Positions 11,592 through 33,845 of a DNA stretch of 35,393 nt are shown one piece after another. How positions within the stretch are numbered: position 1 is the stretch's first letter; each line of letters begins with the position of its first letter. This stretch comes from Thermodesulfovibrionales bacterium (lineage in GTDB: Bacteria > Nitrospirota > Thermodesulfovibrionia > Thermodesulfovibrionales > UBA6898): positions 1 through 35,393 of the forward strand of contig JBIOIY010000034.1 in NCBI GenBank assembly GCA_044450345.1, given 5' to 3'. The notes under the pieces are model-generated. The model had not been told where the DNA came from. It saw only the letters and a list, made by a program, of their open reading frames with translations, and did not search any database. The position numbers were made by a program, and so were the translations under genes.

Positions 11592-11596
11592 CCACT

Positions 11597-13039: not shown

Positions 13040-13186
13040 CCATGCTCGCGGAGTGCATCACAAAAGAGGAGTGTAGGCATAATATCTGTTATCCTTATTA
13101 TGCGTCCCTTACATGGACAGGCGATTATGAGAAAGGAACTTCGGGAAAGTCGAAGAAGAGATAAATTCCGGAATGGGAGGTAACTA

Positions 13187-15103: not shown

Positions 15104-15149
15104 TGAAAAAGGCAATACAGCATGAACTGGAAACAATGAGCGCAAAGGC

Positions 15150-15821: not shown

Positions 15822-15875
15822 AGGTGAAAGGGCGATGATGCAAAAAGCGAAAGTAAGAAGCACAAAGAGGTTGCT

Positions 15876-17786: not shown

Positions 17787-18523
17787 TGGATCTTACACTC
17801 TATGTCTGGAGACAGGGCGGCCCGGACAAACCGGGTAGGCTGGAAGAATACCGGGCGAGCGAAATAAGCCCCGACATGTCCTTTCTCGAGATGCTTGATG
17901 TCGTCAATGAGGACCTGATCAAGACGGGCAAAGAGCCGATAGCGTTTGACCACGACTGCCGTGAGGGGATCTGCGGCACATGTTCCCAGGTCATAAACGG
18001 TGTGCCTCACGGGCCTCGGGAAAAGACGACCGTCTGCCAACTCCATATGAGGCACTTCAAGGACGGTGACACCCTTTACATCGAACCCTGGCGGGCGAGG
18101 GCCTTCCCCGTGATAAAGGACCTGATCGTAGACCGGAGCGCCCTCGAACGGATCATGCAGTCCGGCGGCTACGTCTCCGTCTATACGGGAGGCGTTCCAG
18201 ATGCCAATGCGGTCCTCATCCCGAAGGCCGATGCGGATATTGCGATGGACGCTGCGGAGTGCATCGGTTGCGGGGCGTGCGTTGCTGCATGTCCGAACGG
18301 TTCCGCAATGCTCTTCACGGCTGCGAAGGTGGCGCATCTGGCGAGGCTGCCCCAGGGGAAGGTCGAGGCTGCACGGCGTGTCTGTCTGATGACCGAGGAG
18401 ATGCTTCGGGAAGGGTTCGGCAATTGCGGCAATCATTACGAATGCCAGGCGGTATGCCCGAAAGGGATCAAGGTGCAGTTCATCGCGAAACTGAACAGGG
18501 AGTTTATAAAGGCCCGGTTATAA
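17786..18523 (+). CDS. sdhB: Succinate dehydrogenase/fumarate reductase Fe-S subunit
   Basis: [32 protein letters not shown]. Confidence 0.96.
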
Positions 18524-19546: not shown

Positions 19547-20197
19547 TCAGAATTGTGATTTGAACCGGGTAAAGTCCTGTCTGAGCTCTTCCAGTTCTCT
19601 CCTGATCTGTGCGATCTCTTCTTCTAATCTTGCGATCGCTTCGTTTGCCGGTTCCCCGGCTTCCACAGATTCGGCATGCTGATCAGTCTTGACCGCCATG
19701 TCCTGCGGCGAGAAGAGATGCGCGTAACGTGGTTCCTTCCTCCCGGCCTCCCTCGGCAGCTTTGTAACGAGGGGCGGATCGTGTTCCAACAGAGCCCGCA
19801 GCGTTTCTTCGATTTCCCCTATATTTACGAAGGGGGCCATTCTTTCGGCATTAGAACGGAGCTCGCCGGGGGTTTGCGGGCCCCGAAGCATGAGCTCACA
19901 CAGGACCGCCACTTCAGGCCTCGACAGATCGAACCGGGACAGTAATTCATGCACGTATTTCGCAACGCGGCTGCCCGATATCTGGGTCTCCCGTGCGAGT
20001 CCATTTTGCCGCAGTCCGTCAAGTCCTTTTAATACGGTGGCTTCGTCGACCGAGAGGACGGGTCTGCGGTTTGATTTCTGGTTGCAGGCGTTCGTCAGTG
20101 CATTCAACGAAAGGGGATAATACTCGGGGGTGGTAAGCTCCTTTTCGATGAGGCAACCCAGAATACGGACTTCCATATCATCCAACACGATATCCAT
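19547..20197 (-). CDS. YceH/DUF480 (UPF0502) family protein
   Basis: RILGCLIEKELTTPEYYPLSLNAL, CNQKSNR, LRGPQTPGEL, RYAHL, coiled-coil tail. Confidence 0.93.
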   Translation of the reverse strand: MDIVLDDMEVRILGCLIEKELTTPEYYPLSLNALTNACNQKSNRRPVLSVDEATVLKGLDGLRQNGLARETQISGSRVAKYVHELLSRFDLSRPEVAVLCELMLRGPQTPGELRSNAERMAPFVNIGEIEETLRALLEHDPPLVTKLPREAGRKEPRYAHLFSPQDMAVKTDQHAESVEAGEPANEAIARLEEEIAQIRRELEELRQDFTRFKSQF

Positions 20198-20348
20198 TTT
20201 AATACCTCCTCCATCCGGTATATATAACCTACACTATCCGTGTCTCCTTTGCGACCTTCAAAAAAAATGAGTGCATTCCTCCGGCCGAGCATAGAGCTTT
20301 TTTCCGTGATATACTGTTTAAGGAAATCGGAGAAAAGGAGATACCGTC

Positions 20349-20741
20349 ATGAAATACCTCGTGCTGCTCGGAAGAATTTTGTACTCTTCAATATTCGTGA
20401 TGGCCGCACCCGGCCATTTCTCTGCAAAAACCATCGCCTTCGCCGCGGGCAAAGGCGTGCCGATAGCGTCGCTGGCGGTGCCCTTGTCAGGGGTGATCGC
20501 CTTTTTGGGAGGAATGAGTATCCTTCTTGGTTACAAGGCAAAGCTCGGCGCCTGGCTCACCGTCCTCTTTCTGGTGCCGGTCACGATCATGATCCATAAT
20601 TTCTGGGCTATTTCGGATCCGGTACAGGCGCAGATCCAGCAAGTTAACTTTATGAAAAACCTCTCCATGCTCGGGGCGGCCTTCTTGATCGCCCATTTCG
20701 GCTCGGGCCCCATGAGTCTTGACGCCAGAAAGAAGGGCTGA
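20349..20741 (+). CDS. DoxX family membrane protein
   Basis: LGRIL, HNFW, FMKNLSMLG, GSGPMSLD. Confidence 0.92.
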   Translation: MKYLVLLGRILYSSIFVMAAPGHFSAKTIAFAAGKGVPIASLAVPLSGVIAFLGGMSILLGYKAKLGAWLTVLFLVPVTIMIHNFWAISDPVQAQIQQVNFMKNLSMLGAAFLIAHFGSGPMSLDARKKG

Positions 20742-20897
20742 GGCGCCTTCACACGCAGGATTAGGAAACATATTCATTAAGTAGGGTTGATGTTTTTATA
20801 ACATAAGCGAAAATTAAGGTGAGGATGAAATGGGCCCGGAAGAAAGCGGGATACATTTTCCGGGCAGTTGCCAAATCTTTATAAACGGAGGTCAATC

Positions 20898-22163
20898 GTG
20901 TATAAAATATTCTTAAGGATTTCCATACTTGCTGCGGGAGTATTGGCATTTGTCGTTGCCGCCTCAGCGCAGACGTGCGTGGAATGTCATAAACAAATGA
21001 CTCCCCGGGCTGTCTCCGACTGGGAGATCAGCAAGCATGGCAAAAGCGGCATCGACTGTTCGGTTTGCCACGGTGATAAACACACATCAAGAGACGATGT
21101 GTCAAATGTACAGATTCCGACACCGGATACATGCGGGAAGTGTCACGACAAGCAGGTTGCGCAGTACAAAAGCGGTAAGCATGCTTTTGCGTGGGTGGCC
21201 ATGGAAGCTATGCCTACTATACACTGGCAACCTATGGCGTTGATCGAAGGCAAGAAAGGATGCGGAGGATGCCATAAAATAGGGATGAAGAGCGAAGAGG
21301 AGATAAAGGAGTTGAAAAAGAGCGGTCAGGTCTTTGGCAACGCTGCATGCGATTCATGTCACACGCGACACACCTTCTCTGTACAGGAGGCGAGGCAGCC
21401 GCAGGCTTGCCAGACATGCCATATGGGGTTTGACCACCCGCAATGGGAGATGTATTCCGGCTCCAAACACGGGGTAAGATTCTTGCTGAAACAAAATAAA
21501 ACGCTGCCGGAAGACGTCGCGGCGCCCACCTGCCAGACATGCCATATGCAGGAAGGTAATCATACGGTAAGGGCAGCATGGGGATTCCTTGCCGTCAGGC
21601 TTCCCATGCCTGATGACAAGCAGTGGGCTGATGACCGCTTAACGATCCTGCAGGCGCTCGGGGTGATTAACCCTGCCGGGAAACCGACTCCGCGCCTCGA
21701 AGTAGTGAAGGCAGCCGGCGTTGTCAGGCTGACACAGGAAGAGTGGCAGAAAGACCGTGACAAAATGATCACTACGTGCCATCAGTGCCATTCAATCAAT
21801 TTTGCGAAGGCCGAACTGGCAAAAGGTGACCAGATCATCAGGGCCGCTGACCATCTGATGGCCGAGGCAATCAGAATAATTGCCGGTCTGTATAACGACG
21901 GCATCCTTAAGCAGCCCAAGGCCTATTCATATCCATTCCCTGATCTTCTCACTTTTCATGATGCGCCGACTGTGATTGAACAGAAGCTCTTTGTTATGTT
22001 TCTGGAACACAGGATGAGGACATTCCAGGGTACGTTTCATGCCAATCCCGACTATGCGCTGTGGTATGGCTGGAGTGAGATGCAGAGAGATCTTACGGAA
22101 ATAAAAGAAGCGGCGGCTGACATGAGGGTGAAGGCTGAAAGGGGCGACAGAAAGGGAAAATAA
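20898..22163 (+). CDS. Octaheme cytochrome c, hydroxylamine oxidoreductase family (epsilon-HAO-like)
   Basis: Signal peptide; 8 CxxCH (CVECH, CSVCH, CGKCH, CGGCH, CDSCH, CQTCH twice, CHQCH); HAO signatures CHTRHTFS, CHMGFDHPQWEMYSGSKHG, HANPDYALWYGW; GTG start after GGAGG. Confidence 0.88.
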   Translation: MYKIFLRISILAAGVLAFVVAASAQTCVECHKQMTPRAVSDWEISKHGKSGIDCSVCHGDKHTSRDDVSNVQIPTPDTCGKCHDKQVAQYKSGKHAFAWVAMEAMPTIHWQPMALIEGKKGCGGCHKIGMKSEEEIKELKKSGQVFGNAACDSCHTRHTFSVQEARQPQACQTCHMGFDHPQWEMYSGSKHGVRFLLKQNKTLPEDVAAPTCQTCHMQEGNHTVRAAWGFLAVRLPMPDDKQWADDRLTILQALGVINPAGKPTPRLEVVKAAGVVRLTQEEWQKDRDKMITTCHQCHSINFAKAELAKGDQIIRAADHLMAEAIRIIAGLYNDGILKQPKAYSYPFPDLLTFHDAPTVIEQKLFVMFLEHRMRTFQGTFHANPDYALWYGWSEMQRDLTEIKEAAADMRVKAERGDRKGK

Positions 22164-22193
22164 AACAAAAAGGGTGCCGGGTTCGGGCAGTAC

Positions 22194-23042
22194 CTAGATC
22201 CGATGGCATGCAAAACAGATCGACGGAAGGCGAAGTTTGGCATAAGCACCGGCCCCTTTCGCGGCCGCCTCATGTTGAATAACTCCTTTTTGATGGGGGT
22301 TGTGACAGGTGGAACAAGTGATTCGGTCTCTCGGCACAAGGGGGAGTATCACTAAGAGTCTCTCTTCGGCCTCGCTGATGTTACGCAGAGTCTCTGCCGA
22401 GGGTTTTACAAGAAAATGCTGTGAAAAAAAGGTATCCGGCATGGGGGGATGACATCTCCAGCAGAGAAAGCCGATATCAGCCCTGAATCTAACAGTTTCT
22501 GTCCAGTCGACCTCCGGGTCCGGTTTTGTGATATGGCATAGAAGGCATACCGGTCTGCCGTTCACCTTTTTGACATTTCCCGAGCTGTCGAGCATATCGT
22601 GCGGATTGATCTTTGCAAAATCTTCAAAAAAGTGGCATTGAAAACAGATGGTCCGACGGTCGGCATAAGGGCCGCCCCTCAGGAGTTTTGGGGCGCCTTT
22701 GTGTTCTGGTCCGCCATGGATTTCATGGCAGGTAAGACATCTTATCCTGCCTTCGTAGAGAGGCAATTGGCTGCCGGGTGGCTTTGAAGGACTAAAATTA
22801 ACAGGATGATGATTTTCTGCATAGTGGTGACAATACTCGCAGATAGAGGAAGGATCGGCCTTCAACACGAGTTGGGCGGGGTTCTCCTCCCCGGAGTCAT
22901 GACAGACATCGCAATTACTATGCGGGTTGGTATATGCCTCAACAGTCCTCTTCGGGGTCTGTTCGGGCCACAAAAGTGCTTGCATATTACAGGACGCGAG
23001 AACGGCCGTCAACAGGATTGAATATTTAAGAAAACGCAGCAT
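22194..23042 (-). CDS. Octaheme c-type cytochrome, predicted lipoprotein (paired-CxxCH type)
   Basis: Lipobox LASC; CDVCH, CEYCH, CLTCH, CFQCH, CLLCH, CWRCH, CSTCH, CFACH; NPH repeats. Confidence 0.88.
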   Translation of the reverse strand: MLRFLKYSILLTAVLASCNMQALLWPEQTPKRTVEAYTNPHSNCDVCHDSGEENPAQLVLKADPSSICEYCHHYAENHHPVNFSPSKPPGSQLPLYEGRIRCLTCHEIHGGPEHKGAPKLLRGGPYADRRTICFQCHFFEDFAKINPHDMLDSSGNVKKVNGRPVCLLCHITKPDPEVDWTETVRFRADIGFLCWRCHPPMPDTFFSQHFLVKPSAETLRNISEAEERLLVILPLVPRDRITCSTCHNPHQKGVIQHEAAAKGAGAYAKLRLPSICFACHRI

Positions 23043-23182
23043 CTTAATGTCAGTATATCAAAAACTTACCGAAATATTGTTTCCCGAAAGCAGAATCGCT
23101 CTCTTATGATCTCAACACGCAGCAGTTTCGGCCGCGCAGACGATACCTGAGGATATGCAAACAAGCGGCTTAGCTGCGTGAA

Positions 23183-23212
23183 TTTAAGTCTTTTTAAGTC
23201 TTTTTCTTGACA
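23183..23212 (+). promoter_or_regulatory. Tandem 10-bp direct repeat next to a -35 box ahead of the redox operon
   Basis: TTTAAGTCTT at 23183-23192 and 23193-23202; TTGACA at 23207-23212; -10 element weak. Confidence 0.5.
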
Positions 23213-23255
23213 AACCTTTCAGTATAGGGTATCCATTTGAAAGGAGGTATTCATT

Positions 23256-23987
23256 ATGGGCAGAGTGATAATACTATTTCTTGCCGTATTTTTTTATCTT
23301 CCCTCTGTTTCTTTTGGCTATGAGGCCGCCGGGGTCCAAAACGGAGGGAGTATTGAAGGACAGGTCATATTTGCTGGAGCTACGGTCCCGAAAGATGAAC
23401 CGCTCACGTTGAGCAGCGAAACGGAATACTGCGGAAAGACCCTCCCATCGGAAAGATATTTGATTAGTGCGGATAGAAACATAAGAAACGTCGTTGTGTC
23501 CCTGACAGGGATCAAGTCAGGAAAGGCCATTCCCACCGATGTCGTCACCGTCACAAATTCTAAATGTACCTTTGTACCCCATGTAAGCGTGGGGTTCAAA
23601 GGAAACAAGCTCATCATGAAGAACGACGATCCGGTTTTTCATACGTTCGATATACATGCTTCCTTAAACGGGAAAGAGCTCTATCACGTCGGTCTGCATG
23701 AGCAGGGTTCAGCGGTGACAAAAACACTTGCCAAAACAGGGCTCATGGAATTGACCTGTTATGTCCATCCATGGCAGCTTGCGTATGTCTACATCTTTGA
23801 TCATCCTTATGCGGCGGTTACCGATGAAAAGGGCGAGTTTGTTATCAAGGAAATCCCACCGGGAACATATACTGTCGAGGCCTGGCACGAGGCGCTGGGA
23901 ATAATAAAAATCCCGGACATAAAAGTAGAAAGCGGGAAAAAGAGCACCATAAGGCTGGAGTATACCAGCCGGATAAATCTTAACTAA
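23256..23987 (+). CDS. Periplasmic cupredoxin-domain protein (carboxypeptidase-regulatory-like flanks), paralog 1, Gln axial ligand
   Basis: Signal peptide; DPVFHT...C-YV-H-PW-Q; PYAAVTDEKGEF, PPGTYTVEAWHE. Confidence 0.85.
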   Translation: MGRVIILFLAVFFYLPSVSFGYEAAGVQNGGSIEGQVIFAGATVPKDEPLTLSSETEYCGKTLPSERYLISADRNIRNVVVSLTGIKSGKAIPTDVVTVTNSKCTFVPHVSVGFKGNKLIMKNDDPVFHTFDIHASLNGKELYHVGLHEQGSAVTKTLAKTGLMELTCYVHPWQLAYVYIFDHPYAAVTDEKGEFVIKEIPPGTYTVEAWHEALGIIKIPDIKVESGKKSTIRLEYTSRINLN

Positions 23988-24000
23988 AAGGAGGAGTATT

Positions 24001-24714
24001 ATGCACAAGGCAATTTTGTTTGTGGCTGTCATGGCAGTAATGTTTTCCTTTTCCTCAATTTCCTTTGCGTATGAGACAGTGGACGTAAAAAACGGCGGAA
24101 GCATTGAGGGGGTGGTGGAGTTTACCGGGGGCAGTGTCCCGAAGGACCCGATGCTAACCCTGAGTTCCGAGCAAAAGTTCTGCGGGAAAAGCCTCCCTGC
24201 GGAAAAGTACGTGATCAAGGACAAGAAGATTGCGAACGTGGTTGTGTATATAGAAGATATCAAGGCCGGCAAGGCGATGCCGAATGAACCGGTCACATTG
24301 ACAAACTTGAAATGTGCCTTTGTCCCCCACGTTGCCGTGGGGTTTAAAGGGAACAAGTTCATCGAAAAAAATGATGACCCCATTTTTCATAATATCCATA
24401 CCTATATAAACAATAAGACTATGTATAACATCGGACTTCCTGAAAAAGGGTCGTCGGTCACAAAGCCTTTGACGAAGACAGGCATCATCGAAGTCACCTG
24501 TGACAGCCATCCGTGGATGCACGGGTTCCTCTATGTTTCTGATAATCCTTACGCCGCGGTGACCAATGAAAAGGGCGAGTTTTCGATCAAGAATGTTCCC
24601 CCCGGTACCTATACGGTCGAGGCGTGGCATGAGGCCCTCGGAAAGGTAAAGGTCGCAAATATCAAGGTCGAAAGCGGGAAGCCCAGCAAGACCAAACTGG
24701 ATTACAAGAAATAG
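24001..24714 (+). CDS. Periplasmic cupredoxin-domain protein, paralog 2, canonical Met axial ligand
   Basis: Signal peptide; DPIFHN...C-DS-H-PW-M; colinear paralog of the upstream gene. Confidence 0.87.
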   Translation: MHKAILFVAVMAVMFSFSSISFAYETVDVKNGGSIEGVVEFTGGSVPKDPMLTLSSEQKFCGKSLPAEKYVIKDKKIANVVVYIEDIKAGKAMPNEPVTLTNLKCAFVPHVAVGFKGNKFIEKNDDPIFHNIHTYINNKTMYNIGLPEKGSSVTKPLTKTGIIEVTCDSHPWMHGFLYVSDNPYAAVTNEKGEFSIKNVPPGTYTVEAWHEALGKVKVANIKVESGKPSKTKLDYKK

Positions 24715-24746
24715 ATCTGAAATATTAAAGATTAAGGAGGATGCAG

Positions 24747-26045
24747 ATGCAAAAAGTTTTACTATTTTTAGGGGGTCTGATATTGTTTTTAATGACATTC
24801 CTTTTGCCTCAGGAGTCCCGGGCTATTCCTTCCTTTGCCCGCCAGGTACAGAAGCCTTGCACAGCCTGTCATACCATTTGGGGGAACCTGAATCAAGCCG
24901 GCCGGCAGTTCAAGGTAAAGGCATACACAGATGTCTCTCAGGAATGGCAGATGATCAACAAGGATAAGTTGAATTTGCTTTACGTCTTTCCGGTTTCTGC
25001 AAGGGTCGTTTTTTATCCTTACACAAGGGAACAAGATCAGGTAGCCGGGATAAACAGCAATTCAACCCAGCTCAACACTGTTGATCTGTTTATCGGCAGC
25101 AGGGTGTTTGATTACGCCGGGATATTCGGAAATATCGAGGCAACAAATGTAACCTCAGGCGCGATGGCTTTCGATATCCCTACTATTAAAGCGGCCTTTC
25201 AGTATCCCATCGGGGAAGGAAACACCTTAGGCCTTGTATTGTTTAAAGGCTTGGCAACCTCTGCAGACCCCTTTAACAGTTTGGGGGGAAGGGACAGGGG
25301 CCTGACCTTCGACGCTGAGAGCGTCCCGTGGATATTGTCAAAGGGATGGACCTTCGACTACTGGAGCGGAGGAAACCTCGGAATGGTGGCCCACGGTTAC
25401 TTTTTGGGGAATCGTCTCTACGCCGCTGTCGGCGCGATGAGAGGCGGTAATTCTTCTGATGCGGGTTTCGGTTTCAACAACGATAATAACGGCGACCCCT
25501 TTGACGGGTACTTCCGTCTGGCATGGGACCAGAAGCTTACAAACGGAGCGGTTACCTTCGGCGGCGCATGGTACACCGGGAAGCAGAGACCTGTTGATCC
25601 GACCACCGGGGCCGCGTTGTTCGAGTCCAACGTCAGTAGAGGTTATCTCGATGCCTCCCTTGAGCAAACTTTTGGCGAAGACCACCTTTTTGAGGCCCAG
25701 GCCCTCTATGGTTACGGCAAGGAAACGAATACCTTTGGCGGGGATGAAACGAGAAAGTTTAACGGGTTTCTCGTGGAAGGAAGCTATTTCTACCAGAGGA
25801 CGTATGGTCTGATTGCATCATATAACATGATAAATATGCAGGGAGTTTTACCTACGGATATTTCGTCTGCCGGGACCGGGACCGATGAAAACAAGAAGAA
25901 CACCTGGGTCGTGGCCCTTAACTACCTTCCTTGGCTTAATACGAAGGTCGCGCTCCAGTATGCACAGACAAAGACTAAATTTGCAGGCGGTCAGCCTGAT
26001 GAAACCGACAAAGTATTCAGGGTAGTATTCGACATATTGTTCTAA
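24747..26045 (+). CDS. cyc2: Cyc2-type outer-membrane monoheme cytochrome c-porin fusion
   Basis: Signal peptide, then A|IPSFARQVQKPCTACHTIWGNLNQAGRQFKVKAY (Cyc2 motif AxPxFARQ-x4-CxxCH...L...GRxFK..GY), followed by beta-strand-rich sequence ending FDILF. Second ATG chosen for RBS spacing. Confidence 0.85.
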   Translation: MQKVLLFLGGLILFLMTFLLPQESRAIPSFARQVQKPCTACHTIWGNLNQAGRQFKVKAYTDVSQEWQMINKDKLNLLYVFPVSARVVFYPYTREQDQVAGINSNSTQLNTVDLFIGSRVFDYAGIFGNIEATNVTSGAMAFDIPTIKAAFQYPIGEGNTLGLVLFKGLATSADPFNSLGGRDRGLTFDAESVPWILSKGWTFDYWSGGNLGMVAHGYFLGNRLYAAVGAMRGGNSSDAGFGFNNDNNGDPFDGYFRLAWDQKLTNGAVTFGGAWYTGKQRPVDPTTGAALFESNVSRGYLDASLEQTFGEDHLFEAQALYGYGKETNTFGGDETRKFNGFLVEGSYFYQRTYGLIASYNMINMQGVLPTDISSAGTGTDENKKNTWVVALNYLPWLNTKVALQYAQTKTKFAGGQPDETDKVFRVVFDILF

Positions 26046-26055
26046 ATTATGGACG

Positions 26056-26081
26056 GCCCGGGGATTGAGTAATCCCCGGGC
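26056..26081 (+). other. Intercistronic 11-bp perfect hairpin without U-tail
   Basis: GCCCGGGGATT-GAGT-AATCCCCGGGC between cyc2 and the bd-like gene. Confidence 0.75.
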
Positions 26082-26110
26082 TCCCATTGTCCGGAAGAGG
26101 AGATGATGTA

Positions 26111-27853
26111 ATGGCAGAAGCAGGTGTAGGGAAGGGTATAGCAAAGGGCATAATTAAATTCACTGTTATCCTTGGAGCAGGGTTCCTGTTCCTGGCGGTC
26201 CTCAAAAGGATGCTTCCTGCTGCGACCCAGGACGGCTACCGGTTTTTTCCGCTGATCGGCAGCAGGGACTGGATATGGATAGTGGCCCAGCTGCACCTTA
26301 ATTTTGCGGCCTTTGTCCTGGGCGTCCCGATATTTGCCGTGACCATGGAATTCATAGGCTGGAGGAAGGCCGATGAGAGACTCGACAGGATCGCCTATGA
26401 TTTCACAAAGCTCTTTACCCTTGCCTACACCCTGACCGCTATCATGGGGTCGATCTTCCTTGTCAGCCTGCCGGTGCTCTATCCGAAGTTTATCGATTAT
26501 ATGATGAAGATACTCGGACCGACGTGGTGGTTATATCTTATCGTGATGTACGGCGAAGTTTTGGTCTGTTATTATTATTTTTATTCATGGAAAAAGATGA
26601 AAGACAGAAAAGGGTTCCACGTCTTTCTCGGAGTGTTATTGAATGTCTTCGGGGCGCTGCTCCTTCTGATCACGAGCACATGGGTCGGCTTTATGACTAC
26701 CCCCGCTGGTGTGAATGCGGAGGGAGAGCTGGTGAGCAGATGGGGGGCGATACACACTCATATGTGGCTTCCCCTTACGCTTCACCGCTTTGTCGCAAAC
26801 ATTGTCTTCGGCGCCGGAATTGCGGCCGCATATGCGGCCTTCAGGTTTATCACCGCAAAGACGGAAGAAGAAAAGGCTTATTACGACTGGATGGGCTATA
26901 CGTCCGCGATCATATCGATCGGCGTTTCTCTTCTTCTGCCCGGCGTCGGCTATCTTTTGGGTGTTGAAATTTATTCCTTCAACGAGCAGATGGGCATCCA
27001 GCTCATGGGCGGTTTTTTTGCGTGGCTCTGGGTCATGCAGGCGATCCTCATAGGCGCCATCCTTTTCTTCATAAACTACTACCTCTGGATTTCGCTCCAT
27101 AAGATGCCGGGCGGCGAGAGGTACTTCCCCTACGTAAAATTCCTGTTCCTGGTCCTTCTTGTCGGATATGCGGTCTGGCTTACCCCCCACGACATCGCCC
27201 TGAGCCTTGAAGAGGCGAGGAGGACCGGCGCATACCACCCGGCGCTTGGCAAGCTGGGCGTCATGGCGGCAAAAAACACGGCGGTCATCCTCTCTTACCT
27301 TGCTACGTTCCTGAGTTTCGCCATCTTCCGGATGAGCAACAAGGAACCCTCCGTGGCGTGGGCGAAGGCGGGGCATATCATCAGGGCGGCTATCATTGTA
27401 GTCTCATCCGCGGGCGTGCTGGCGCTCGGCATTTTCAGCTATTACGTGTCTGCTGCGGTAAGGGTGAAGGTCCTTTCTCCTATCCAGTTCAGTCTGTTCA
27501 TCCTTGCGATAATTGCATTGTTCATCCTTGATTATTTTATGTATAAAGGGGCCCGAGTGATAGGAGAGCCGCGGTGGGGACAGATGCCCGAGAGGTCTCA
27601 GTATGCATTGATCGCCATCACAGTGACTTTTACGTGGCTTATGGGCATGCTCGGATACATGAGGGCCGGTGCGCGGCAATACTGGCATGTCTACGGCGTC
27701 ATGATGAACACGAGTCCCGACGCCTACCTTCCCACCCACGGCGCGGCCTCGATCATTGTCACGATAGTCACGTTACTTTTCTTCGTCCTCGTCTCTCTTG
27801 TCTTTTGGTCCATCATGAAACTTGAGAAGGTTATCGGGGAAAGGAGGGGCTGA
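26111..27853 (+). CDS. Cytochrome bd-like oxidase subunit I (CydA-like, Nitrospira/anammox type, no adjacent CydB)
   Basis: Polytopic; AQLHLNFAAFVLG (H19-like), GFMTTP, LHRFVANIVFG (H186-like), WLTPH, YHP, MGMLGYMRAGARQYWHVYG (divergent GRQPW); ATG after GAGGAG. Confidence 0.85.
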   Translation: MAEAGVGKGIAKGIIKFTVILGAGFLFLAVLKRMLPAATQDGYRFFPLIGSRDWIWIVAQLHLNFAAFVLGVPIFAVTMEFIGWRKADERLDRIAYDFTKLFTLAYTLTAIMGSIFLVSLPVLYPKFIDYMMKILGPTWWLYLIVMYGEVLVCYYYFYSWKKMKDRKGFHVFLGVLLNVFGALLLLITSTWVGFMTTPAGVNAEGELVSRWGAIHTHMWLPLTLHRFVANIVFGAGIAAAYAAFRFITAKTEEEKAYYDWMGYTSAIISIGVSLLLPGVGYLLGVEIYSFNEQMGIQLMGGFFAWLWVMQAILIGAILFFINYYLWISLHKMPGGERYFPYVKFLFLVLLVGYAVWLTPHDIALSLEEARRTGAYHPALGKLGVMAAKNTAVILSYLATFLSFAIFRMSNKEPSVAWAKAGHIIRAAIIVVSSAGVLALGIFSYYVSAAVRVKVLSPIQFSLFILAIIALFILDYFMYKGARVIGEPRWGQMPERSQYALIAITVTFTWLMGMLGYMRAGARQYWHVYGVMMNTSPDAYLPTHGAASIIVTIVTLLFFVLVSLVFWSIMKLEKVIGERRG

Positions 27854-28368
27854 TGAAAGCAGGAGTCCTGAAGCTTGCTGTCATTGTAATAGGTCTGAAT
27901 CTCATCTTTGCATACATCGGCCTTGAATTTCTCCCCCAGTCCGAATCCAGGCCGCCGAAGGTGATCAAGATAGCAGAAGGCATCTCACAGGAAGATCTTG
28001 TTAATGTCGGTGAGCAGATTGTTTTCGGAAAAGGGCAGTGTATGGTATGTCATCCGGCGAAGGCGGAGTCGGGAATGAGGGCCCCGGCCATGTCCGCCAT
28101 AGGAGCGGAAATGGAAAAGGAGGCCAAAGAGCGGGGCATCACTCCAGAGGAGCACGTTTTTGAGGCCCTCGTCAATCCATCCAAATACATCGTGAAGGGG
28201 TTCGAAGATATGATGTCCCCCGTGCACACTCCACCGACCTCTTTGACCGGAGGGGAAATCATCGCAGTGTCCGCCTATCTTCAGAGCCAGGGAGGGAAGG
28301 TGACGGTTTCCTTTCCGGGGTCTCTGCCGGTACTGAAAGACCAGATAACGAAGGCAGGAGGGAAATAA
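27853..28368 (+). CDS. Membrane-anchored monoheme cytochrome c
   Basis: N-terminal TM, CMVCH, distal MMSP; TGATG coupling to the bd-like gene. Confidence 0.9.
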   Translation: MKAGVLKLAVIVIGLNLIFAYIGLEFLPQSESRPPKVIKIAEGISQEDLVNVGEQIVFGKGQCMVCHPAKAESGMRAPAMSAIGAEMEKEAKERGITPEEHVFEALVNPSKYIVKGFEDMMSPVHTPPTSLTGGEIIAVSAYLQSQGGKVTVSFPGSLPVLKDQITKAGGK

Positions 28369-28369
28369 T

Positions 28370-29173
28370 ATGCAATTTATATTCCCTGTAGTCACATTGA
28401 TCGGTTTGGCGATAGCGATAACCTCCGCCCTGAAAAAGTCCCCTTTCTTTAATTTCATAGGCATACTTGTCTTTATTTACGGAGGCATAAAGAGCCTGTC
28501 GCTGGTGATGCCGCCTCTTCCGGGGCAGGTTGTCAACATGTTCATGATCATGTCCTTCTTTTCGTTTCTCATCTATTTCTCCATCCATGATGAAACGCTG
28601 AAGGCCTTCCTTGAGCCGATGAGGGCCGTGCTCGCCGATGACGACAAAAAAATTCTGAGGGTCATCATCGTCTACCTCGTTATCCCTCTTCTTGCCGCGT
28701 ATGGTACCTATGTCAAAGTGATGCCGACCTTCGAGCCTCCGGTTTCGGCGAGGATCACTCACCCCGAACCCCCCTCTGAAATGGATTTCAAGGGCAACCC
28801 CATTAAGATATTGGGACTCGAAAACCCCTTGAGGAAAGACGCGGCGAACCTGTCGAAGAATATCGGGGAAGGGAAAGAGATATATTACAAGAACTGTTTC
28901 TTCTGCCACGGCGATGACCTCGACGGCAAAGGGAACTTCGCCCAGGCCTTCAACCCCCCGCCGCCTGCGTTCATAGGTATCGATACGATCGCACAACTGC
29001 CTGAATCCTATGTTTTCTGGCGTGTTGCAAAGGGGTGGAGGGGGCTTCCCGCGGGTGCGCATCCATGGGATTCTGCGATGCCCTCCTTCGAGGACTTTCT
29101 CGAAGAAGATGCGATATGGAAGGTGGTCCTCTTTATTTACGATGCCTCGGGCAATAAGCCCAGGACGTGGTGA
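28370..29173 (+). CDS. Multi-TM membrane monoheme cytochrome c
   Basis: 3-4 TM helices, then NCFFCHG and WDSAMP (distal Met). Confidence 0.9.
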   Translation: MQFIFPVVTLIGLAIAITSALKKSPFFNFIGILVFIYGGIKSLSLVMPPLPGQVVNMFMIMSFFSFLIYFSIHDETLKAFLEPMRAVLADDDKKILRVIIVYLVIPLLAAYGTYVKVMPTFEPPVSARITHPEPPSEMDFKGNPIKILGLENPLRKDAANLSKNIGEGKEIYYKNCFFCHGDDLDGKGNFAQAFNPPPPAFIGIDTIAQLPESYVFWRVAKGWRGLPAGAHPWDSAMPSFEDFLEEDAIWKVVLFIYDASGNKPRTW

Positions 29174-29198
29174 GCGTATGCGGAAGGGAGATTTTATA

Positions 29199-30620
29199 AT
29201 GCGGCTTCTCATGACCCTTGTGTTATTGCTGCTGTTGCCGGTCCACGCGTTTTCGGAAGATAAGGGAAAGATACTCTACGACAAGTGGTGCGCCCAGTGC
29301 CACGGCGAAAAAGGGGACGGCAAAGGCCCGGCTGCGGACTTCGTATTCCCGAAGCCGAGGGATTTTACGAAGGGCACGTACAAATTCCACTCGACCGCAT
29401 CCGGTGAACCGGTCCTGGATTCGGACATCATCCGGTCGATAAGAAACGGAAACCCCGGCACCTCGATGCCGCCCTGGACGCGGTTCAGCGACGATGACGT
29501 GAAAGCGATTGTCGCTTATCTGAAGAAGTTTTCACCCGATACCTTTGAGACGAAGGGCACCCCCTTAAAGATAGGCAAACCGCCGGGCAGTAAAGAGAAA
29601 CTGATAGCGCTCGGGAAAGAGATGTATGAAAAAGCGAAGTGCTGGGAATGTCACGGCAAGGCGGGAAGGGGCGACGGCGAGAAGGGATGGCAGGAAAAAT
29701 TCAAGGACGATTGGGGCAACAGGGCTTATCCGGCCGACCAGACCACCCCCTGGGAGTACAGAAACGGCAGTGACTTAAAGGACCTCTTTGTGACGATTAC
29801 CGCGGGCATCGACGGCACGCCGATGACCTCTTACGGGGACACGGTTTCCGAGGAGAAGAGATGGGCCCTCGCATATTATGTGAAGTCGCAGCAGCAGATA
29901 AGAAAACTCGGTCTTGCGTTGCGGGTGAAAAAAGTGACCGCTATCCCTTCTTCGACGGATGATCCGGCCTGGAACACTGTCGACTACCTCGATCTTCCGA
30001 TGGCCGGCCAGATAATCTTCGACCCCCGGGATTTCACGGCGCTCATTACAAATGCGCGAGTCAGAGGGGTATACACCGGTTCGGACCTGGCGGTTATGGT
30101 CGAATGGACAGGCAAAAAACCGAACAAGGGCGACGACGGGCATCCTCCCGATGCTGCTCGGATACAGTTCCCCTCAAAATCTTCGGAAGGCGCGGAGCCA
30201 TTTTTCCTGATGGGTGACAAGAAGCTGGCGGTCAACATATGGCAGTGGAAGGCGTCTGATGACCTCGCTGTCGAATTCAACGCACAGGGACCATCGGCCG
30301 TTACGCAGCAGGAAAAACAGGATTTACAAGTCGTTCCGTCCTATAGAGAGGGTCTGTACAGGATCATGTTCAAAAGGGCCTTGCAGACAGGGGACAAGGA
30401 CGATGCCGCTTTCGAGGTCGGAAAGTTCACACCCTTTGCAGTAACTCTCTATGACGGAAGAAATGACGAGGAGAACAACAAAGGAGCGGTATCGGCATGG
30501 TACTTCATGGAACTGGAGCCGCCTACACCCGTTAAGGTGTATGTGTTGCCGCCAATAGCGTTCATCGCTTTCCTCGGTATCGGTCTCGTCCTTCGTAAGA
30601 GCGTAAAGAGGAAAGGATGA
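29199..30620 (+). CDS. Diheme cytochrome c fused to an EbdC/DMSO-reductase-type heme b domain, C-terminal TM (NxrC-like)
   Basis: Signal peptide; CAQCH...PGTSMP and CWECH...DGTPM; DPAW, DAARIQFP, FLMGD, VNIWQWKA, YDGRNDE...NKG; C-terminal hydrophobic helix. Start reset to MRLLMTL. Confidence 0.87.
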   Translation: MRLLMTLVLLLLLPVHAFSEDKGKILYDKWCAQCHGEKGDGKGPAADFVFPKPRDFTKGTYKFHSTASGEPVLDSDIIRSIRNGNPGTSMPPWTRFSDDDVKAIVAYLKKFSPDTFETKGTPLKIGKPPGSKEKLIALGKEMYEKAKCWECHGKAGRGDGEKGWQEKFKDDWGNRAYPADQTTPWEYRNGSDLKDLFVTITAGIDGTPMTSYGDTVSEEKRWALAYYVKSQQQIRKLGLALRVKKVTAIPSSTDDPAWNTVDYLDLPMAGQIIFDPRDFTALITNARVRGVYTGSDLAVMVEWTGKKPNKGDDGHPPDAARIQFPSKSSEGAEPFFLMGDKKLAVNIWQWKASDDLAVEFNAQGPSAVTQQEKQDLQVVPSYREGLYRIMFKRALQTGDKDDAAFEVGKFTPFAVTLYDGRNDEENNKGAVSAWYFMELEPPTPVKVYVLPPIAFIAFLGIGLVLRKSVKRKG

Positions 30621-30630
30621 TTTTGAATCA

Positions 30631-31632
30631 ATGAATATGTACAAGAAGATATTGGTCCCGGTAGACAACTCGAAATATTCACAGTACTGTACGGACTTGG
30701 GAATCACACTTGCCGGACGGTTCGGCAGCGATCTCACAGGCAGCCACGTATACAGCGCCGGGCTGCACGACAAGAGGTTCAGGGACATGGAGGTCGGCCT
30801 GCCAGGACACTACAAGGAGGAAGAGAGGCTGAGGAGATCGAGGAAGGTCCATGATTCTCTCATAGGGGACGGGCTCCGGCTGATTTCCGACGCCTATCTC
30901 GACTCTTTTAAGCGCGGATGCACGGAAGCGGGAATACAGTTCAGCTGCAAGCTCATGGAGGGTAAAAACTGGCTTGAGATCCTGCGGGACGTCAGAAGCA
31001 GCGGCTACGACCTGGTGATCATGGGCGTCCTCGGGCTCGGCGCGGTAAACGGAAATCTCATCGGCGGCGTATGCGAACGAGTGGCAAGAAAGGCAAGAAC
31101 GGACGTACTTGCGGTAAAAAACGGCAGTCCCCTTGGTAAGAGGATCGTTGTTGGGATCGACGGAAGCGCGGAGGGTTTCTCGGCCTTCGGAAAGGCCGTG
31201 ATATTAGGCAAGCTCTTTGACCTGAAGGTGGAGGCGGTCTCGGTCTATGACCCTCATTTTCACCGGAGGGCATTTCAGGCCCTTGTCGGGGTCCTCTCCG
31301 GCGAGGCCGGGAAGATGTTTAAGTTCACGGAGCAGGAGAAGCTCCACGATGAAATCATAGACGACGGCCTCGGTAAGATATACCAGGGCCATCTGGACCG
31401 GGCCTATCTTGCCGGCCGCAAGGAGGGGATGGAGGTGAAAACCGTCCTTCTCGCCGGAAAGGCATACTCCGAGATATGCAGATATCTCGAAAAAGACCCG
31501 CCGTCCCTCCTCGTGGTGAGCAGGTTTGGGGCACACCAGACCGAGGAAATGGACATCGGCAATACTGCGGAAAATCTCCTCCGGCTCGCACCGTGCAGCG
31601 TCCTTCTGAGCTGCGGGGCCGGGACGGATTAG
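30631..31632 (+). CDS. Tandem-domain universal stress protein
   Basis: YKKILVPVDNS, DLVIMGVLGLG..IGGVCERV; second domain IVVGIDGS...IGNTAENLLRLAPCSVL. Confidence 0.92.
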   Translation: MNMYKKILVPVDNSKYSQYCTDLGITLAGRFGSDLTGSHVYSAGLHDKRFRDMEVGLPGHYKEEERLRRSRKVHDSLIGDGLRLISDAYLDSFKRGCTEAGIQFSCKLMEGKNWLEILRDVRSSGYDLVIMGVLGLGAVNGNLIGGVCERVARKARTDVLAVKNGSPLGKRIVVGIDGSAEGFSAFGKAVILGKLFDLKVEAVSVYDPHFHRRAFQALVGVLSGEAGKMFKFTEQEKLHDEIIDDGLGKIYQGHLDRAYLAGRKEGMEVKTVLLAGKAYSEICRYLEKDPPSLLVVSRFGAHQTEEMDIGNTAENLLRLAPCSVLLSCGAGTD

Positions 31633-31638
31633 TCTTCC

Positions 31639-32913
31639 ATGGAAGATACGCTCTCAATTATTTCCTGGAATGTGACCGGAAAATGCAACCTCAGCTGCAG
31701 ACACTGCTATCTCCCGGCCCACATGGACGGAGGCGGCCGCGATCATCATGAATTACATACCAAAGAGGCCCTCCGGGTCATCGATCAGATCGCCCTCGTA
31801 AATCCTGAGGTGATGCTGATACTCTCAGGCGGTGAGCCGCTCCTGAGAGATGACATCTTCGATCTGGCGGCGCATGCATCGGGCAAGGGGATGATGGTCG
31901 TTCTGGGCTCAAACGGACTCCTTATCGATAAAAGGGTCGCCTCATCGCTGCTCCGCTGCGGCGTTACCGGCATAAGTATAAGCCTCGATTCGGTCGATCC
32001 GAAAATTCATGATGAAGTGCGATCTTTTGACGGGGCATGGCAACGCGCTGTCGGGGCCGTCTCCGCATGCCGGGGCGAGGGGCTCCCTGTACAGATCAAT
32101 GCTGTTGTCACACGAAAGAACTACCGGACAATACCCGAACTTATCGAATATGCTCACGCGCTCGGCGCAAAAGTCTTCAGCCCCTTTTTCCTTGTATGTA
32201 CAGGCAAGGGCGAGGAGCTGACCGACATTACACCCGAGCAATACGAAGAGGTCCTTTCACGCGTCGCCGAAGCGCAGGGGAAATACGGCGACATGATGAT
32301 TAGAACGAGATGCGCGCCCACATTCAGAAGAATGCTCTATCAGCGTAATCCCGATTCGCCGCTTCTGAAGATGGATACAGGCCGATGTCTTGCCGGCCGG
32401 CGCTACTGCAGGATCACCCCTCAAGGGGATGTGACCCCCTGTCCCTATATGCCACTGTCGCTGGGGAATGTAAAGGAGACGGATTTCAATGACATCTGGA
32501 GGCGCTCCGAGGTCCTCATTTCGCTGAGAAGCCCGCAGCTGAAAGGCAAATGTAAGCTCTGTGAATTCCGTCTGCTATGCGGGGGCTGCAGGGCTAGGGC
32601 ATATGCGCTTAGAAATGATTATCTTGAAGAAGACCCCTGGTGTGCATTTATGCCGGGCGGCGGAGACGTCATTAGACCTCCTTCCTTTGTTTCTGCATCA
32701 TGCTGCAAAGCATCTCCAGGGCCGATGCCTTTATGGACCGAAGCGGCCGAGGAACGCCTAAAGAGGGTCCCTTTTTTTGTCCGGTCCATGGTCAGAGCGG
32801 CTGCTGAAAAATATGCCGTGGAGAAAGGCTGTGAGGAAATTACTCCGGAGATGATGGAGGAGTTGAAACAAAAAGCAGGGATGGGAGGAATGGGCGGACA
32901 TGGACATGGATAG
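31639..32913 (+). CDS. Radical SAM/SPASM enzyme, NirJ/AhbC/AhbD-like, with a C-terminal BchB-type PCP_red domain
   Basis: WNVTGKCNLSCRHCY, SGGEPL, SPASM C..G...C..PCPY...KCKLC...CGGCRARAY...DPWC; WTEAAEERLKRVPFFVR; tail MGGMGGHGHG. Confidence 0.88.
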   Translation: MEDTLSIISWNVTGKCNLSCRHCYLPAHMDGGGRDHHELHTKEALRVIDQIALVNPEVMLILSGGEPLLRDDIFDLAAHASGKGMMVVLGSNGLLIDKRVASSLLRCGVTGISISLDSVDPKIHDEVRSFDGAWQRAVGAVSACRGEGLPVQINAVVTRKNYRTIPELIEYAHALGAKVFSPFFLVCTGKGEELTDITPEQYEEVLSRVAEAQGKYGDMMIRTRCAPTFRRMLYQRNPDSPLLKMDTGRCLAGRRYCRITPQGDVTPCPYMPLSLGNVKETDFNDIWRRSEVLISLRSPQLKGKCKLCEFRLLCGGCRARAYALRNDYLEEDPWCAFMPGGGDVIRPPSFVSASCCKASPGPMPLWTEAAEERLKRVPFFVRSMVRAAAEKYAVEKGCEEITPEMMEELKQKAGMGGMGGHGHG

Positions 32914-33160
32914 GGAATTAACGGAAAAGGAAAAAAAATTCTTAAGCGGGGCGGCAAAGCGCAAGAGCCTTTTTTTAATATCCAGCGTTGCTACGGTCGT
33001 TGTTGCCGTGGCATTCCTCGTGTATCACGGGCTTGTCACAAAAGATATGAACGGGTCCAGGTTCGTCATCATCCTACTGCTGCTGCTCTCGGGCCGTTCA
33101 TATTTGAGACTCTATAAGAGCGCCGTCATATTCAGCAAACTTAAGAACACGGACGGTTAA
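32906..33160 (+). CDS. Small 2-TM membrane protein
   Basis: Two hydrophobic helices; overlaps the upstream stop; start at 32900 or 32906. Confidence 0.7.
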   Translation: MDRELTEKEKKFLSGAAKRKSLFLISSVATVVVAVAFLVYHGLVTKDMNGSRFVIILLLLLSGRSYLRLYKSAVIFSKLKNTDG

Positions 33161-33164
33161 GGAA

Positions 33165-33845
33165 ATGGAAACGAGACTGACATCGGGAAGACTCCCTGTG
33201 GCGTGCCTCGACTGGCTTGCTTCATCGAGACTCAAATTTTTGGAGGACATGGTCGGGGGAAGACCGATGCGGTATTTTTCCGCCCATCTGCCGGTGATGG
33301 CAACATGGCGGCAGGACGAAGATGAGACGTTCCCCGTCAATATGACCGTGAAAGGGATAGGTCTTATTCCGAGGACGGACCTCCTTATGGATTATATCGA
33401 TATCTTTGAAGGGATGATTGCGGAGGTCAGGTCGGTGCCGTGGGAGGAGAGTCTCGGAAAGAGGGTCGGTGTTATGTCAAGGCTTTATACCGATACTAAT
33501 AACTTCGAGCCAGCCATGCTCGGCGGCCTCGAGATATTCCAGGGTAAAGCGCATGAAAACATGAGAGAAAACCCCCATGCAAGCCTGCTTTATGTGGGGA
33601 TGGCATACGGCCCGGAAGGCATGCAGTACATAAGTTTTCAGGTCAACGGGACCGTCGAGATCCTCGAAAAAGACAGTCCCCATTACAGATTCCTTCTTGC
33701 CTCAAGAAAGCTCTTTGAGTTCGATAGATTTCATCTCTTTCAGCCCGACTATCCGTTCGGATATCTCCTGCGAGTGAGTGAAGTAAGGGATAAATCTCCG
33801 TGGTCAAGGGCGGCGAAGAGCTCTCAACCAGGAGAGCAACAGTAA
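33165..33845 (+). CDS. Pyridoxamine-5'-phosphate-oxidase-like split-barrel protein
   Basis: HLPVMAT, NMTVKGIG, GLEIF..KAHENMRENPHASLLY, SFQVNGTVEI. Confidence 0.65.
   Translation: METRLTSGRLPVACLDWLASSRLKFLEDMVGGRPMRYFSAHLPVMATWRQDEDETFPVNMTVKGIGLIPRTDLLMDYIDIFEGMIAEVRSVPWEESLGKRVGVMSRLYTDTNNFEPAMLGGLEIFQGKAHENMRENPHASLLYVGMAYGPEGMQYISFQVNGTVEILEKDSPHYRFLLASRKLFEFDRFHLFQPDYPFGYLLRVSEVRDKSPWSRAAKSSQPGEQQ

Follow-up and report, generated by a model that had tools for sequence, protein, structure and literature searches.

The locus considered here raises the question of which electron donor and which acceptor serve a CydA-like membrane protein that is encoded together with cytochromes c instead of CydB. 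The gene lies in a stretch of 35,393 nucleotides (hereafter, the window), comprising positions 1 to 35,393 of contig JBIOIY010000034.1 in assembly GCA_044450345.1, from a Thermodesulfovibrionales bacterium (Nitrospirota, UBA6898). A first-pass annotation, prepared from the nucleotide sequence alone, had described a CydB-less oxidase that might be fed by cytochrome c and might reduce either O2 or nitric oxide (NO), and public records annotate the protein as 'cytochrome ubiquinol oxidase subunit I'. In the present study, the protein was assigned, by its features and by its grouping with Nitrospira and Manganitrophaceae proteins, to the 14-helix type of the OR-N family of bd-like oxidases. With about even confidence, we propose that the protein is the membrane subunit that binds haem in a bd-like respiratory complex of the OR-N type, namely a terminal reductase supplied from the periplasm by cytochromes c and cupredoxins, with O2 as the favoured acceptor.

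First, the relationship to CydA was observed both in sequence comparisons and in the predicted fold. The Pfam family PF01654 matched the N-terminal half of the protein only (E 1.9e-14), phmmer matched the Geobacillus CydA 5doq_A (E 2.3e-8), a profile of 55 family members retrieved five PDB sequences of CydA (E 9e-17 to 1e-6), and hhalign aligned residues 51-250 with Escherichia coli CydA at a probability of 93%. The AlphaFold2 model gave CydA chains only among its top ten Foldseek matches in the PDB (E 1e-8 to 7e-6), with template-modelling (TM) scores of 0.50-0.61 on the target over alignments of 460-590 columns; the Foldseek library contained no structure of a bd-like OR-N-type protein. The fold of the haem-copper oxidases and NO reductases was rejected, as chains of cytochrome c oxidase subunit I appeared only at E >= 0.03 with TM scores of 0.12-0.15. 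No resemblance to CydB was found anywhere in the protein (probability 0.1 in the comparison with E. coli CydB), and the absence of cydB reported in the first pass held for the whole window, since neither PF02322 (CydB) nor a second PF01654 was present among the 68 open reading frames (ORFs) of at least 110 residues. The protein contains a single Cys and no CxxCH. The OR-C family was rejected because its members carry CxxCH in a C-terminal periplasmic extension and about eight helices, and several features of the OR-N family were observed, namely no quinol site, no haem c motif, 14 transmembrane helices and an operon with alternative electron donors (cytochromes c and a periplasmic cytochrome b). 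NCBIfam holds no model for this protein, nor for the cupredoxin-like (Cup) and Cyc2-like proteins encoded upstream of it. The reading frame begins at the ATG at 26111, about 9 nt downstream of an AGGAG; an in-frame TTG at 26087 would add eight residues and is the less likely start, because the homologues span 579-582 residues.

Second, the predicted structure has a topology that departs from that of canonical CydA. The model computed with alignment A1 had a mean predicted local distance difference test (pLDDT) value of 86.8, a predicted TM score of 0.88 and 14 long helices, a number also obtained from hydropathy; the model computed from the single sequence was unusable (pLDDT 49.9). The topology was read using the positive-inside rule and the known periplasmic position of the Q-loop and the GRQPW loop. 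In contrast to canonical CydA (E. coli bd-I, Geobacillus 5DOQ), which has nine helices, the protein appears to have one extra helix before CydA helix 1, followed by seven helices that would match CydA helices 1-7, four helices (residues 335-477) that would be inserted after CydA helix 7, and two final helices that probably represent CydA helices 8 and 9. The periplasmic Q-loop, which the first-pass annotation had failed to recognise in the sequence, is indeed absent from the model, and a loop of about 13 residues (291-303) holds its site. In this topology, H62, H225, M299, H360, E368, H376, M385, R518, R522, W525 and H526 would lie on the periplasmic side, and E80, D92, K167 and H170 would be positioned where the first four-helix bundle opens to the cytoplasm.

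Third, the residue pattern is that of a modified CydA. In the hhalign and profile alignments, H62, E149, H170 and H225 correspond to H19, E107, H126 and H186 of E. coli CydA, H19 being the His ligand of the active-site haem; the position of E99, like E107 a proton-channel glutamate of canonical CydA, is occupied by the invariant Y142, with six residues between Y142 and E149 vs seven between E99 and E107. In the C-terminal region, the motif Y516-M-R-A-G-A-R-Q-Y-W-H526 aligns with F442-V-A-E445-Y-G-R448-Q-P-W451; R448 and W451 are retained as R522 and W525, and A519 stands at the position of E445. This last alignment is weak when taken alone (domain E 31 against E. coli bd-II and a score below zero against bd-I) and is backed by the topology and by the Foldseek alignments. 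Conservation was determined in 33 close (>=60% identity) and 22 distant (<60%) homologues from 60 genome loci. H62, H170, H225 and H526 were invariant in all 55, including the H526 of YWH in 33/33 and 22/22 sequences, respectively, and H360 (WLTPH) and H376 (YHP) were present in all the close and in 20 of the 22 distant homologues. The two exceptions are second paralogues of Nitrospira, which stand outside any operon and lack the entire 360-385 loop. Position 519 is Ala or Ser (Ser in most relatives), Leu once and never Glu. M299 is invariant and is topologically apt as the equivalent of M393, which with H186 ligates haem b558 and which falls outside the alignment coverage. The 25 positions that look functional are practically invariant; among the operon-linked rows that differ from the window, two of 39 carry one or two substitutions, as do the second paralogues of Nitrospira. 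An invariant YYDWMGY motif (D259, W260 and M261) was also observed in the cytoplasmic third of helix 6. Thus, what the first-pass annotation had read from the sequence, namely the haem-ligating His residues, a rewritten AGARQYW motif with loss of the conserved Glu, and extra His in WLTPH, YHP and YWH, is real and under selection.

The second paralogue of Nitrospira was observed in L058-L060 at approximately 2150-3870, 4 kb upstream of the operon-linked gene, with 29-31% identity to the window protein. The missing loop (H360, E368, H376 and M385) is the one predicted to touch the cytochrome c with four transmembrane segments (4-TM cytochrome c) described below.

The distribution of the family was examined using the same 60 loci. 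Nitrospirota of the Thermodesulfovibrionia type, including Candidatus (Ca.) Magnetobacterium, Magnetominusculus and Magnetomonas, carry orthologues with 66-97% identity, and further orthologues were found in three Aquificaceae metagenome-assembled genomes (MAGs) and in one MAG labelled Thermodesulfobacteriota. Relatives with 37-46% identity occur in Ca. Manganitrophaceae, Nitrospiria and Nitrospira, in one Chloroflexi MAG and in one Fibrobacteria MAG. The gene order CydA-like protein, monohaem cytochrome c, 4-TM cytochrome c and dihaem-c/EB_dh protein was observed in 49 of the 60 loci and spans Thermodesulfovibrionia, Nitrospira, Manganitrophaceae and the Fibrobacteria MAG. In nine of the 11 loci without the full order, the contig ends at the CydA-like gene or within about 1.2 kb after it; the remaining exceptions are L039, with three of the four genes, and L056, in which the CydA-like protein is fused to cytochrome c. 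A Cup-like gene lies upstream in 44/60 loci, and genes for a universal stress protein and a radical SAM protein follow downstream in 14/60, including the Fibrobacteria locus L038. Scans of positions 20100-33200 did not delimit the operon, as sigma-70 promoters were predicted at 8 sites vs 11.6 in shuffles and terminators at 8 sites vs 12.6.

A quick IQ-TREE phylogeny was computed for 73 rows: the window protein, E. coli CydA, 16 representatives of clusters and 55 ORFs from the loci, each with >=450 aligned residues. L027 and truncated loci were excluded. The window falls within a clade of 34 rows (100 in the Shimodaira-Hasegawa-like approximate likelihood ratio test, SH-aLRT), sister to a Chloroflexi pair (SH-aLRT 98), and the operon-linked clades of Manganitrophaceae/Nitrospiria and of Nitrospira adjoin it. 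Several branches are long and the deep order of the tree is unsafe. E. coli CydA is a distant outgroup, about 6 changes per site from the bd-like family, and no grouping of the window protein with canonical CydA was seen. These relatives, together with the OR-N features and the match to published systems, bear out the earlier suggestion of a non-quinol bd-like protein of the Nitrospirota type. An ordinary quinol-oxidising CydA with a cydB elsewhere in the genome, to which the public annotation and the PF01654 match might point, is hardly credible in view of the 14 helices in place of nine, the missing Q-loop, the loss of both E99 and E445, the distance of E. coli CydA in the tree, the conserved cytochrome c partners and the lack of any CydB-like region. 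The equivalents of H19, E107, H126, H186, R448 and W451 and the fold itself (Foldseek E 1e-8 to 7e-7 and TM scores of 0.5-0.6 on the target for the E. coli bd-I and Geobacillus 5DOQ type) are what the protein shares with canonical CydA.

Two further observations were made on these loci. In L027, at 8001-9741, the closest relative (97% identity) is present as two ORF pieces, with a database protein of 473 residues (P0114), reflecting either a frameshift in that MAG or a fault in its assembly. In L015, L016 and L026 (Aquificaceae MAGs) and L008 (Thermodesulfobacteriota MAG), the complete module is present at 70-80% identity and is nested beside or within the Nitrospirota clade, as a result of either horizontal transfer or mis-binned contigs.

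Fourth, the conserved partners are cytochromes c. The TGA of the CydA-like gene (27851-27853) overlaps the ATG of the monohaem cytochrome c gene (CytC1) in a TGATG (27851-27855), which agrees with the translational coupling noted in the first pass, and CytC1 holds this position in 49/60 loci. CytC1 matched PF00034 just below the cut-off (E 7.3e-4; 21.2 vs 21.3 bits). C-terminal cytochrome c domains were found in three of the 13 longer CydA-like relatives scanned, and CytC1 is fused to the CydA-like body in L056 and in the representatives P0121, P0125 and P0130. The gene for the 4-TM cytochrome c (CytC2) starts 1 nt after the TAA of CytC1, and the invariant residues of its product in an alignment of 41 sequences (A2) are R128, H131, C176-x2-C179-H180 (CFFCH) and M237, including an invariant linker, R128-x2-H131-P-x-P-P. 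Complex prediction for the CydA-like protein and CytC2 gave an ipSAE of 0.76 in three runs, and the best of three controls gave 0.00; this mark was reached by 116/157 solved complexes and by 2/215 mismatched pairs. At least 74% of the contacts agreed across runs, and the pLDDT of the partner was at least 81. The predicted interface comprises helices 7-8, loop 357-379 and residues 523-524 of the CydA-like protein and residues 43-77, 122-134 (including H131) and 228-229 of CytC2. As the PDB contains no structure of the bd-like family, the predictor is unlikely to have reproduced a known complex, and the prediction supports binding of the CydA-like subunit to the 4-TM cytochrome c.

The fourth gene of the conserved order encodes an 'alternative NxrC'. 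It starts 5-26 nt after the CytC2 stop, probably at 29199 behind GGAAGGGAG, and its product matched PF00034 twice, PF09459 and, below the cut-off, TIGR03477 (86.6 bits). Its dihaem domain (residues 21-235) matched Kuenenia Kustc0457 (PDB 6h5l_B; E 8e-48), and its EB_dh domain matched subunit C of nitrite oxidoreductase (NXR; 7b04_C, E 3.8e-11) and the gamma subunit of ethylbenzene dehydrogenase. Because of the tight coupling to three cytochrome c genes, the order in 49/60 loci, the fusions in 3/13 relatives and the complex prediction, cytochrome c is the likely donor, as had been surmised in the first-pass annotation. The features of the locus are listed in Table 1.

Table 1. Features of the window at the CydA-like locus and around it
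Feature	Position	Strand	Description
Octahaem HAO-family protein	20868..22163	+	431 aa, eight CxxCH
Cup1, Cup2 paralogue	23256..23987	+	Gln at the Met ligand position (CYVHPWQ)
Cup2	24001..24714	+	Periplasmic cupredoxin-like domain and CarboxypepD_reg-like beta-sandwich; PF13620
Cyc2-like fused monohaem cytochrome-porin	24741..26045	+	Signal peptide, single CTACH at residue 40, long C-terminal region with Phe as last residue
12-bp GC-rich perfect hairpin	26055..26082	+	Minimum free energy -30.6 kcal/mol, z -2.5; between Cyc2-like and CydA-like genes
CydA-like (bd-like, OR-N type) membrane subunit	26111..27853	+	580 aa, 14 predicted transmembrane helices
CytC1, monohaem cytochrome c	27853..28368	+	One CxxCH at residue 63, N-terminal transmembrane segment 1-29
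CytC2, 4-TM cytochrome c	28370..29173	+	PF13442/PF00034; about four N-terminal transmembrane helices
'Alternative NxrC'	29199..30620 (start possibly 29178)	+	Signal peptide, dihaem c domain, EB_dh/NxrC-like haem b domain, C-terminal transmembrane anchor
Tandem universal stress protein	30631..31632	+	PF00582; conserved downstream by synteny
Radical SAM/SPASM protein, NirJ2/AhbD kind	31639..32913	+	C-terminal PCP_red domain (PF08369); TIGR04055 324 bits and TIGR04545 293 bits, both below cut-offs

The protein is of an already described kind, the same as bd-like_3 of Nitrospira and TO_1 of Ca. Manganitrophus, and the novelty claimed in the first-pass annotation was overstated, since the 14-helix bd-like protein and its cluster have been in print since 2013 (PMC3578206) and were later classed as OR-N (bioRxiv 10.1101/2021.01.16.426971). 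Lücker et al. (2013) reported in Nitrospina, Nitrospira and Kuenenia a module comprising an alternative NxrC, mono- and dihaem cytochromes c, two cupredoxin-like proteins and a 14-helix bd-like oxidase in which the N-terminal haem ligands are conserved, helices replace the Q-loop and the quinol residues are missing; the function was called enigmatic, and a role like that of alternative complex III was raised (PMC3578206). Mundinger et al. (2019) listed the bd-like_3 cluster among the 40 most transcribed genes (PMC6606698), and Yu et al. named the complex TO_1 and found that its expression in an aerobic Mn oxidiser reached the 98th percentile (bioRxiv 10.1101/2021.11.15.468770). The OR-N family was defined by Murali, Gennis and Hemp, with 14 helices in N1 and N2 (bioRxiv 10.1101/2021.01.16.426971), and is described as the sole candidate oxidase in some cultured Nitrospirales (PMC12342949). 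Two later papers state that experimental confirmation is lacking or that the oxygen affinity is unknown (PMC10839748; PMC12342949).

Like the OR-N1/N2 proteins of Nitrospira, Nitrospina and Kuenenia (bd-like_3), the window protein has 14 helices, the N-terminal haem ligands and no Q-loop, and the neighbours of its gene likewise encode a monohaem c, a further cytochrome c, cupredoxin-like proteins and an alternative NxrC (PMC3578206; PMC6606698), in an order identical to that in Nitrospira L058-L060. Unlike them, it shows 42-43% identity, has no NXR gene in the window, carries an inserted Cyc2-like gene and comes from a host of the Thermodesulfovibrionia type. Like TO_1, for which a bd-like clade I protein, a periplasmic cytochrome b and two cytochromes c are described (bioRxiv 10.1101/2021.11.15.468770), it has the same gene order as found in L042, and three of the four genes were detected in L039. 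It differs from TO_1 in its 39% identity and in the Cyc2-like gene, which lies inside the window cluster, whereas the Cyc2 reported for Manganitrophus is a candidate at a separate locus. The literature search yielded no structure of a bd-like complex and did not find the module described in magnetotactic Nitrospirota or in Thermodesulfovibrionia, the latter gap being less firmly established; one Thermodesulfovibrionia paper reads cydA transcripts as a defence against reactive oxygen species, and a study of Cyc2 in this class makes no reference to oxidases of the bd-like kind.

Herein, we propose a course of electron flow from the homology, residue pattern, synteny and predicted interface described above, from which we infer the cofactors, the direction of flow and the acceptor. 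The complex would comprise the CydA-like protein, the membrane-anchored monohaem c, the 4-TM cytochrome c and the membrane-tethered dihaem-c/haem-b protein. The cytochromes c and one or two cupredoxin-like proteins, which probably feed the complex instead of quinol, would deliver electrons on the periplasmic side. These would pass to the conserved haems in the first helix bundle, whose ligands are H225, probably paired with M299, and H62. Protons would be taken from the cytoplasm through a retained channel containing E149 and H170, with the invariant E80, D92 and K167 at its mouth, and the oxidant, for which O2 at low tension is the most probable candidate, would be reduced at the haem site of the first bundle, adding to the membrane potential. 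In the predicted interface, H360, H376 and H526 together with H131 of CytC2 may form an additional periplasmic cofactor site (haem or copper), which might replace the Q-loop as the point of electron entry or substitute for the lost E445 ligand. A terminal reductase is favoured because the H19 ligand and the cytoplasmic proton path stay invariant, because a predicted docking surface for cytochrome c replaces the quinol site, and because aerobic lithotrophs express the module very highly. A proton path facing the cytoplasm would be useful for an exergonic terminal reduction and counter-productive for quinone reduction driven by the proton-motive force.

Several points weigh against this proposal. 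Thermodesulfovibrionia are known mainly as anaerobes. The active site could not be a copy of the canonical one, because it lacks both E445 and E99, which serve the b595/d site of the E. coli enzyme. The grounds for a cofactor role of the extra His residues are the topology and the predicted interface, and those for the cupredoxin call are a pattern of ligands together with very weak matches in the PDB (E 0.11-0.14 for Cup2 against blue-copper domains). In addition, the module has been reported in strictly anaerobic anammox bacteria (PMC6606698; PMC3578206), and, according to three papers (PMC3578206; PMC10839748; PMC12342949), no member of the bd-like family has been purified or assayed.

The occurrence in anammox bacteria makes a quinone-linked role a serious rival, which we consider possible and clearly the less probable: the complex might be a membrane electron hub, resembling alternative complex III, that tethers redox enzymes of the periplasm (here an HAO-like enzyme, and NXR in nitrite oxidisers) by way of the alternative NxrC/dihaem subunit and exchanges electrons, forward or in reverse, between cytochromes c or cupredoxins and the menaquinone pool. 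Such a role has been proposed in print for the same module, partly from its anammox occurrence (PMC3578206; PMC6606698). In the window, the tethered dihaem domain resembles Kustc0457, the partner of an HAO-like nitrite reductase of Kuenenia, the octahaem HAO-family protein has Kustc0458 (6h5l_A) as its best PDB match (E 7.6e-30), and the YYDWMGY motif lies in helix 6 where canonical CydA has no cofactor and could be a quinone site. However, every quinol-binding feature of canonical CydA is missing, as also reported for the published module (PMC3578206); an invariant H19 ligand and a cytoplasmic proton path would be superfluous in a pure electron conduit; and the HAO-like gene stands beside the module in just one of the 60 loci (L027), 4 kb upstream of the CydA-like gene in the window and outside the conserved module. 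In the window, unlike in the Kustc0458/Kustc0457 complex (PDB 6H5L), a single protein combines the dihaem domain with an NxrC-like haem b domain and a transmembrane anchor, and the octahaem gene lies outside the operon and is absent from 59/60 related loci.

The same octahaem gene bears on the NO reductase considered in the first pass. The Tyr that forms the cross-link in Nitrosomonas europaea HAO aligns with Leu in this protein, which is probably reductive for this reason. The three invariant extra His residues face the periplasm, and their pattern recalls the three-His metal site of haem-copper oxidases and NO reductases. A NO reductase or a dual O2/NO reductase, in which periplasmic NO would be reduced at the H62 haem with the extra His residues as a non-haem metal site, would fit these positions and the HAO-family gene, as the closest solved relative of its product makes NO from nitrite (PMC8042395) and the natural partner of that relative resembles the dihaem domain of the complex; NO is moreover an intermediate in the anammox bacteria that carry the module (PMC3578206; PMC8042395). 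Nevertheless, we regard it as rather improbable: the fold is that of CydA and not that of haem-copper enzymes, the HAO-like neighbour is lineage-specific, and aerobic nitrite and Mn oxidisers express the module highly (PMC6606698; bioRxiv 10.1101/2021.11.15.468770). O2 is the more likely acceptor in the proposed terminal reductase, and both the high expression of TO_1 in an aerobic Mn oxidiser (bioRxiv 10.1101/2021.11.15.468770) and the standing of OR-N as sole candidate oxidase in some cultured Nitrospirales (PMC12342949) speak for it; no result of the present study separates O2 from NO.

A second octahaem cytochrome is encoded on the reverse strand at 22194-23042 (282 residues, eight CxxCH, lipoprotein-like N-terminal signal), and both octahaem cytochromes are common only to the window and the closest locus, L027. 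Downstream of the radical SAM gene, a PNPOx-like protein is encoded at 33165-33845; this and the radical SAM protein could act as a pair in the maturation of the complex or in modifying its haem. Farther upstream, positions 9460-18523 hold a methylcitrate-cycle set (PrpB-like, citrate synthase-like, PrpD and acyl-CoA synthetase) followed by a three-subunit succinate dehydrogenase/fumarate reductase, and a PAS/sigma-54 activator (6471-8207) lies upstream of this set.

The genes immediately upstream suggest where the electrons may originate. Homologues of the Cup proteins show a ligand pattern like that of type-1 copper sites, with H130 and H170 in 67/67 sequences and M173 in 56/67; position 167 is Cys in 50/67 and Ser in the other 17. 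No Pfam cupredoxin domain was found in Cup1 or Cup2 even at E <= 10. The Cyc2-like protein is named from its motif and putative architecture. A homologue search gave 175 proteins at E <= 0.001, and the 120 of these matches that are listed are all 'hypothetical protein', with none named Cyc2. Among 118 full-length homologues, 117 contain exactly one CxxCH (at residues 34-51) and 117 end with an aromatic residue. Porin families of Pfam matched 5 of 20 homologues at E <= 0.05, one of them at the cut-off, and Pfam gave nothing meaningful for the window protein at E <= 10; in the protein atlas, the protein falls in unnamed clusters only, with porin families on a minority of members. The Cyc2-like gene lies between the Cup and CydA-like genes in 13 of the 60 loci; all 12 of these that are in the tree fall in the sub-clade of the window, and the 13th (L027) is outside the tree. 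Thus, the insertion of this gene in the operon, which is newly described here, is limited to the sub-clade of the window. The hairpin between the Cyc2-like and CydA-like genes has no clear U tract; a comparable hairpin of other sequence occurs at the same place in 8/11 related loci, with T runs following several, and its possible roles are partial termination or stabilisation of the mRNA, either of which would tune the ratio of Cyc2-like to complex transcripts.

Iron oxidation chains based on Cyc2 are known from the rus operon of Acidithiobacillus and from the Cyc2-Cyc1-cbb3 chain of Zetaproteobacteria. As in these chains, a putative outer-membrane monohaem cytochrome-porin, putative periplasmic copper proteins or cytochromes c and a probable inner-membrane terminal oxidase are encoded together in the window; unlike in them, the oxidase is bd-like and not of the haem-copper type, and the porin-cytochrome is known here as Cyc2-like by its architecture. 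In the sub-lineage of the window, electrons would probably originate at this outer-membrane protein. A bolder version, which we judge unlikely in its full form, holds that a single cluster encodes a complete metal-oxidising chain, which runs from the Cyc2-like porin-cytochrome by way of cupredoxins and cytochromes c to the bd-like subunit and ends at the inner membrane with the bd-like complex, with an inter-subunit haem or copper site of H360, H376, H526 and CytC2 H131 replacing both the Q-loop and E445. If, in addition, the HAO-like enzyme docks on the Kustc0457-like domain, Fe(II) oxidation could be coupled with reducing nitrite or NO besides O2, which, if true, would suggest enzymes that might underlie iron oxidation dependent on nitrate or nitrite.

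Thus, the findings that are new in the present study are the Thermodesulfovibrionia orthologues, including those of magnetotactic Nitrospirota, the Cyc2-like insertion, the predicted interface with CytC2, and the Kustc0457-like dihaem domain with an HAO-like octahaem gene nearby. Nitrite oxidisers such as Nitrospira and Nitrospina and the Mn-oxidising Manganitrophus are presumed to use OR-N bd-like complexes as terminal oxidases for the last step of their globally important respirations. The six invariant His residues of the CydA-like subunit, H131 of CytC2 and the predicted interface between them provide a testable residue set for this step. The module is highly conserved in Thermodesulfovibrionia (66-97% identity), and the window lacks an NXR gene, so that its occurrence does not depend on nitrite oxidation; in one sub-clade, a Cyc2-like outer-membrane cytochrome has been connected to it.

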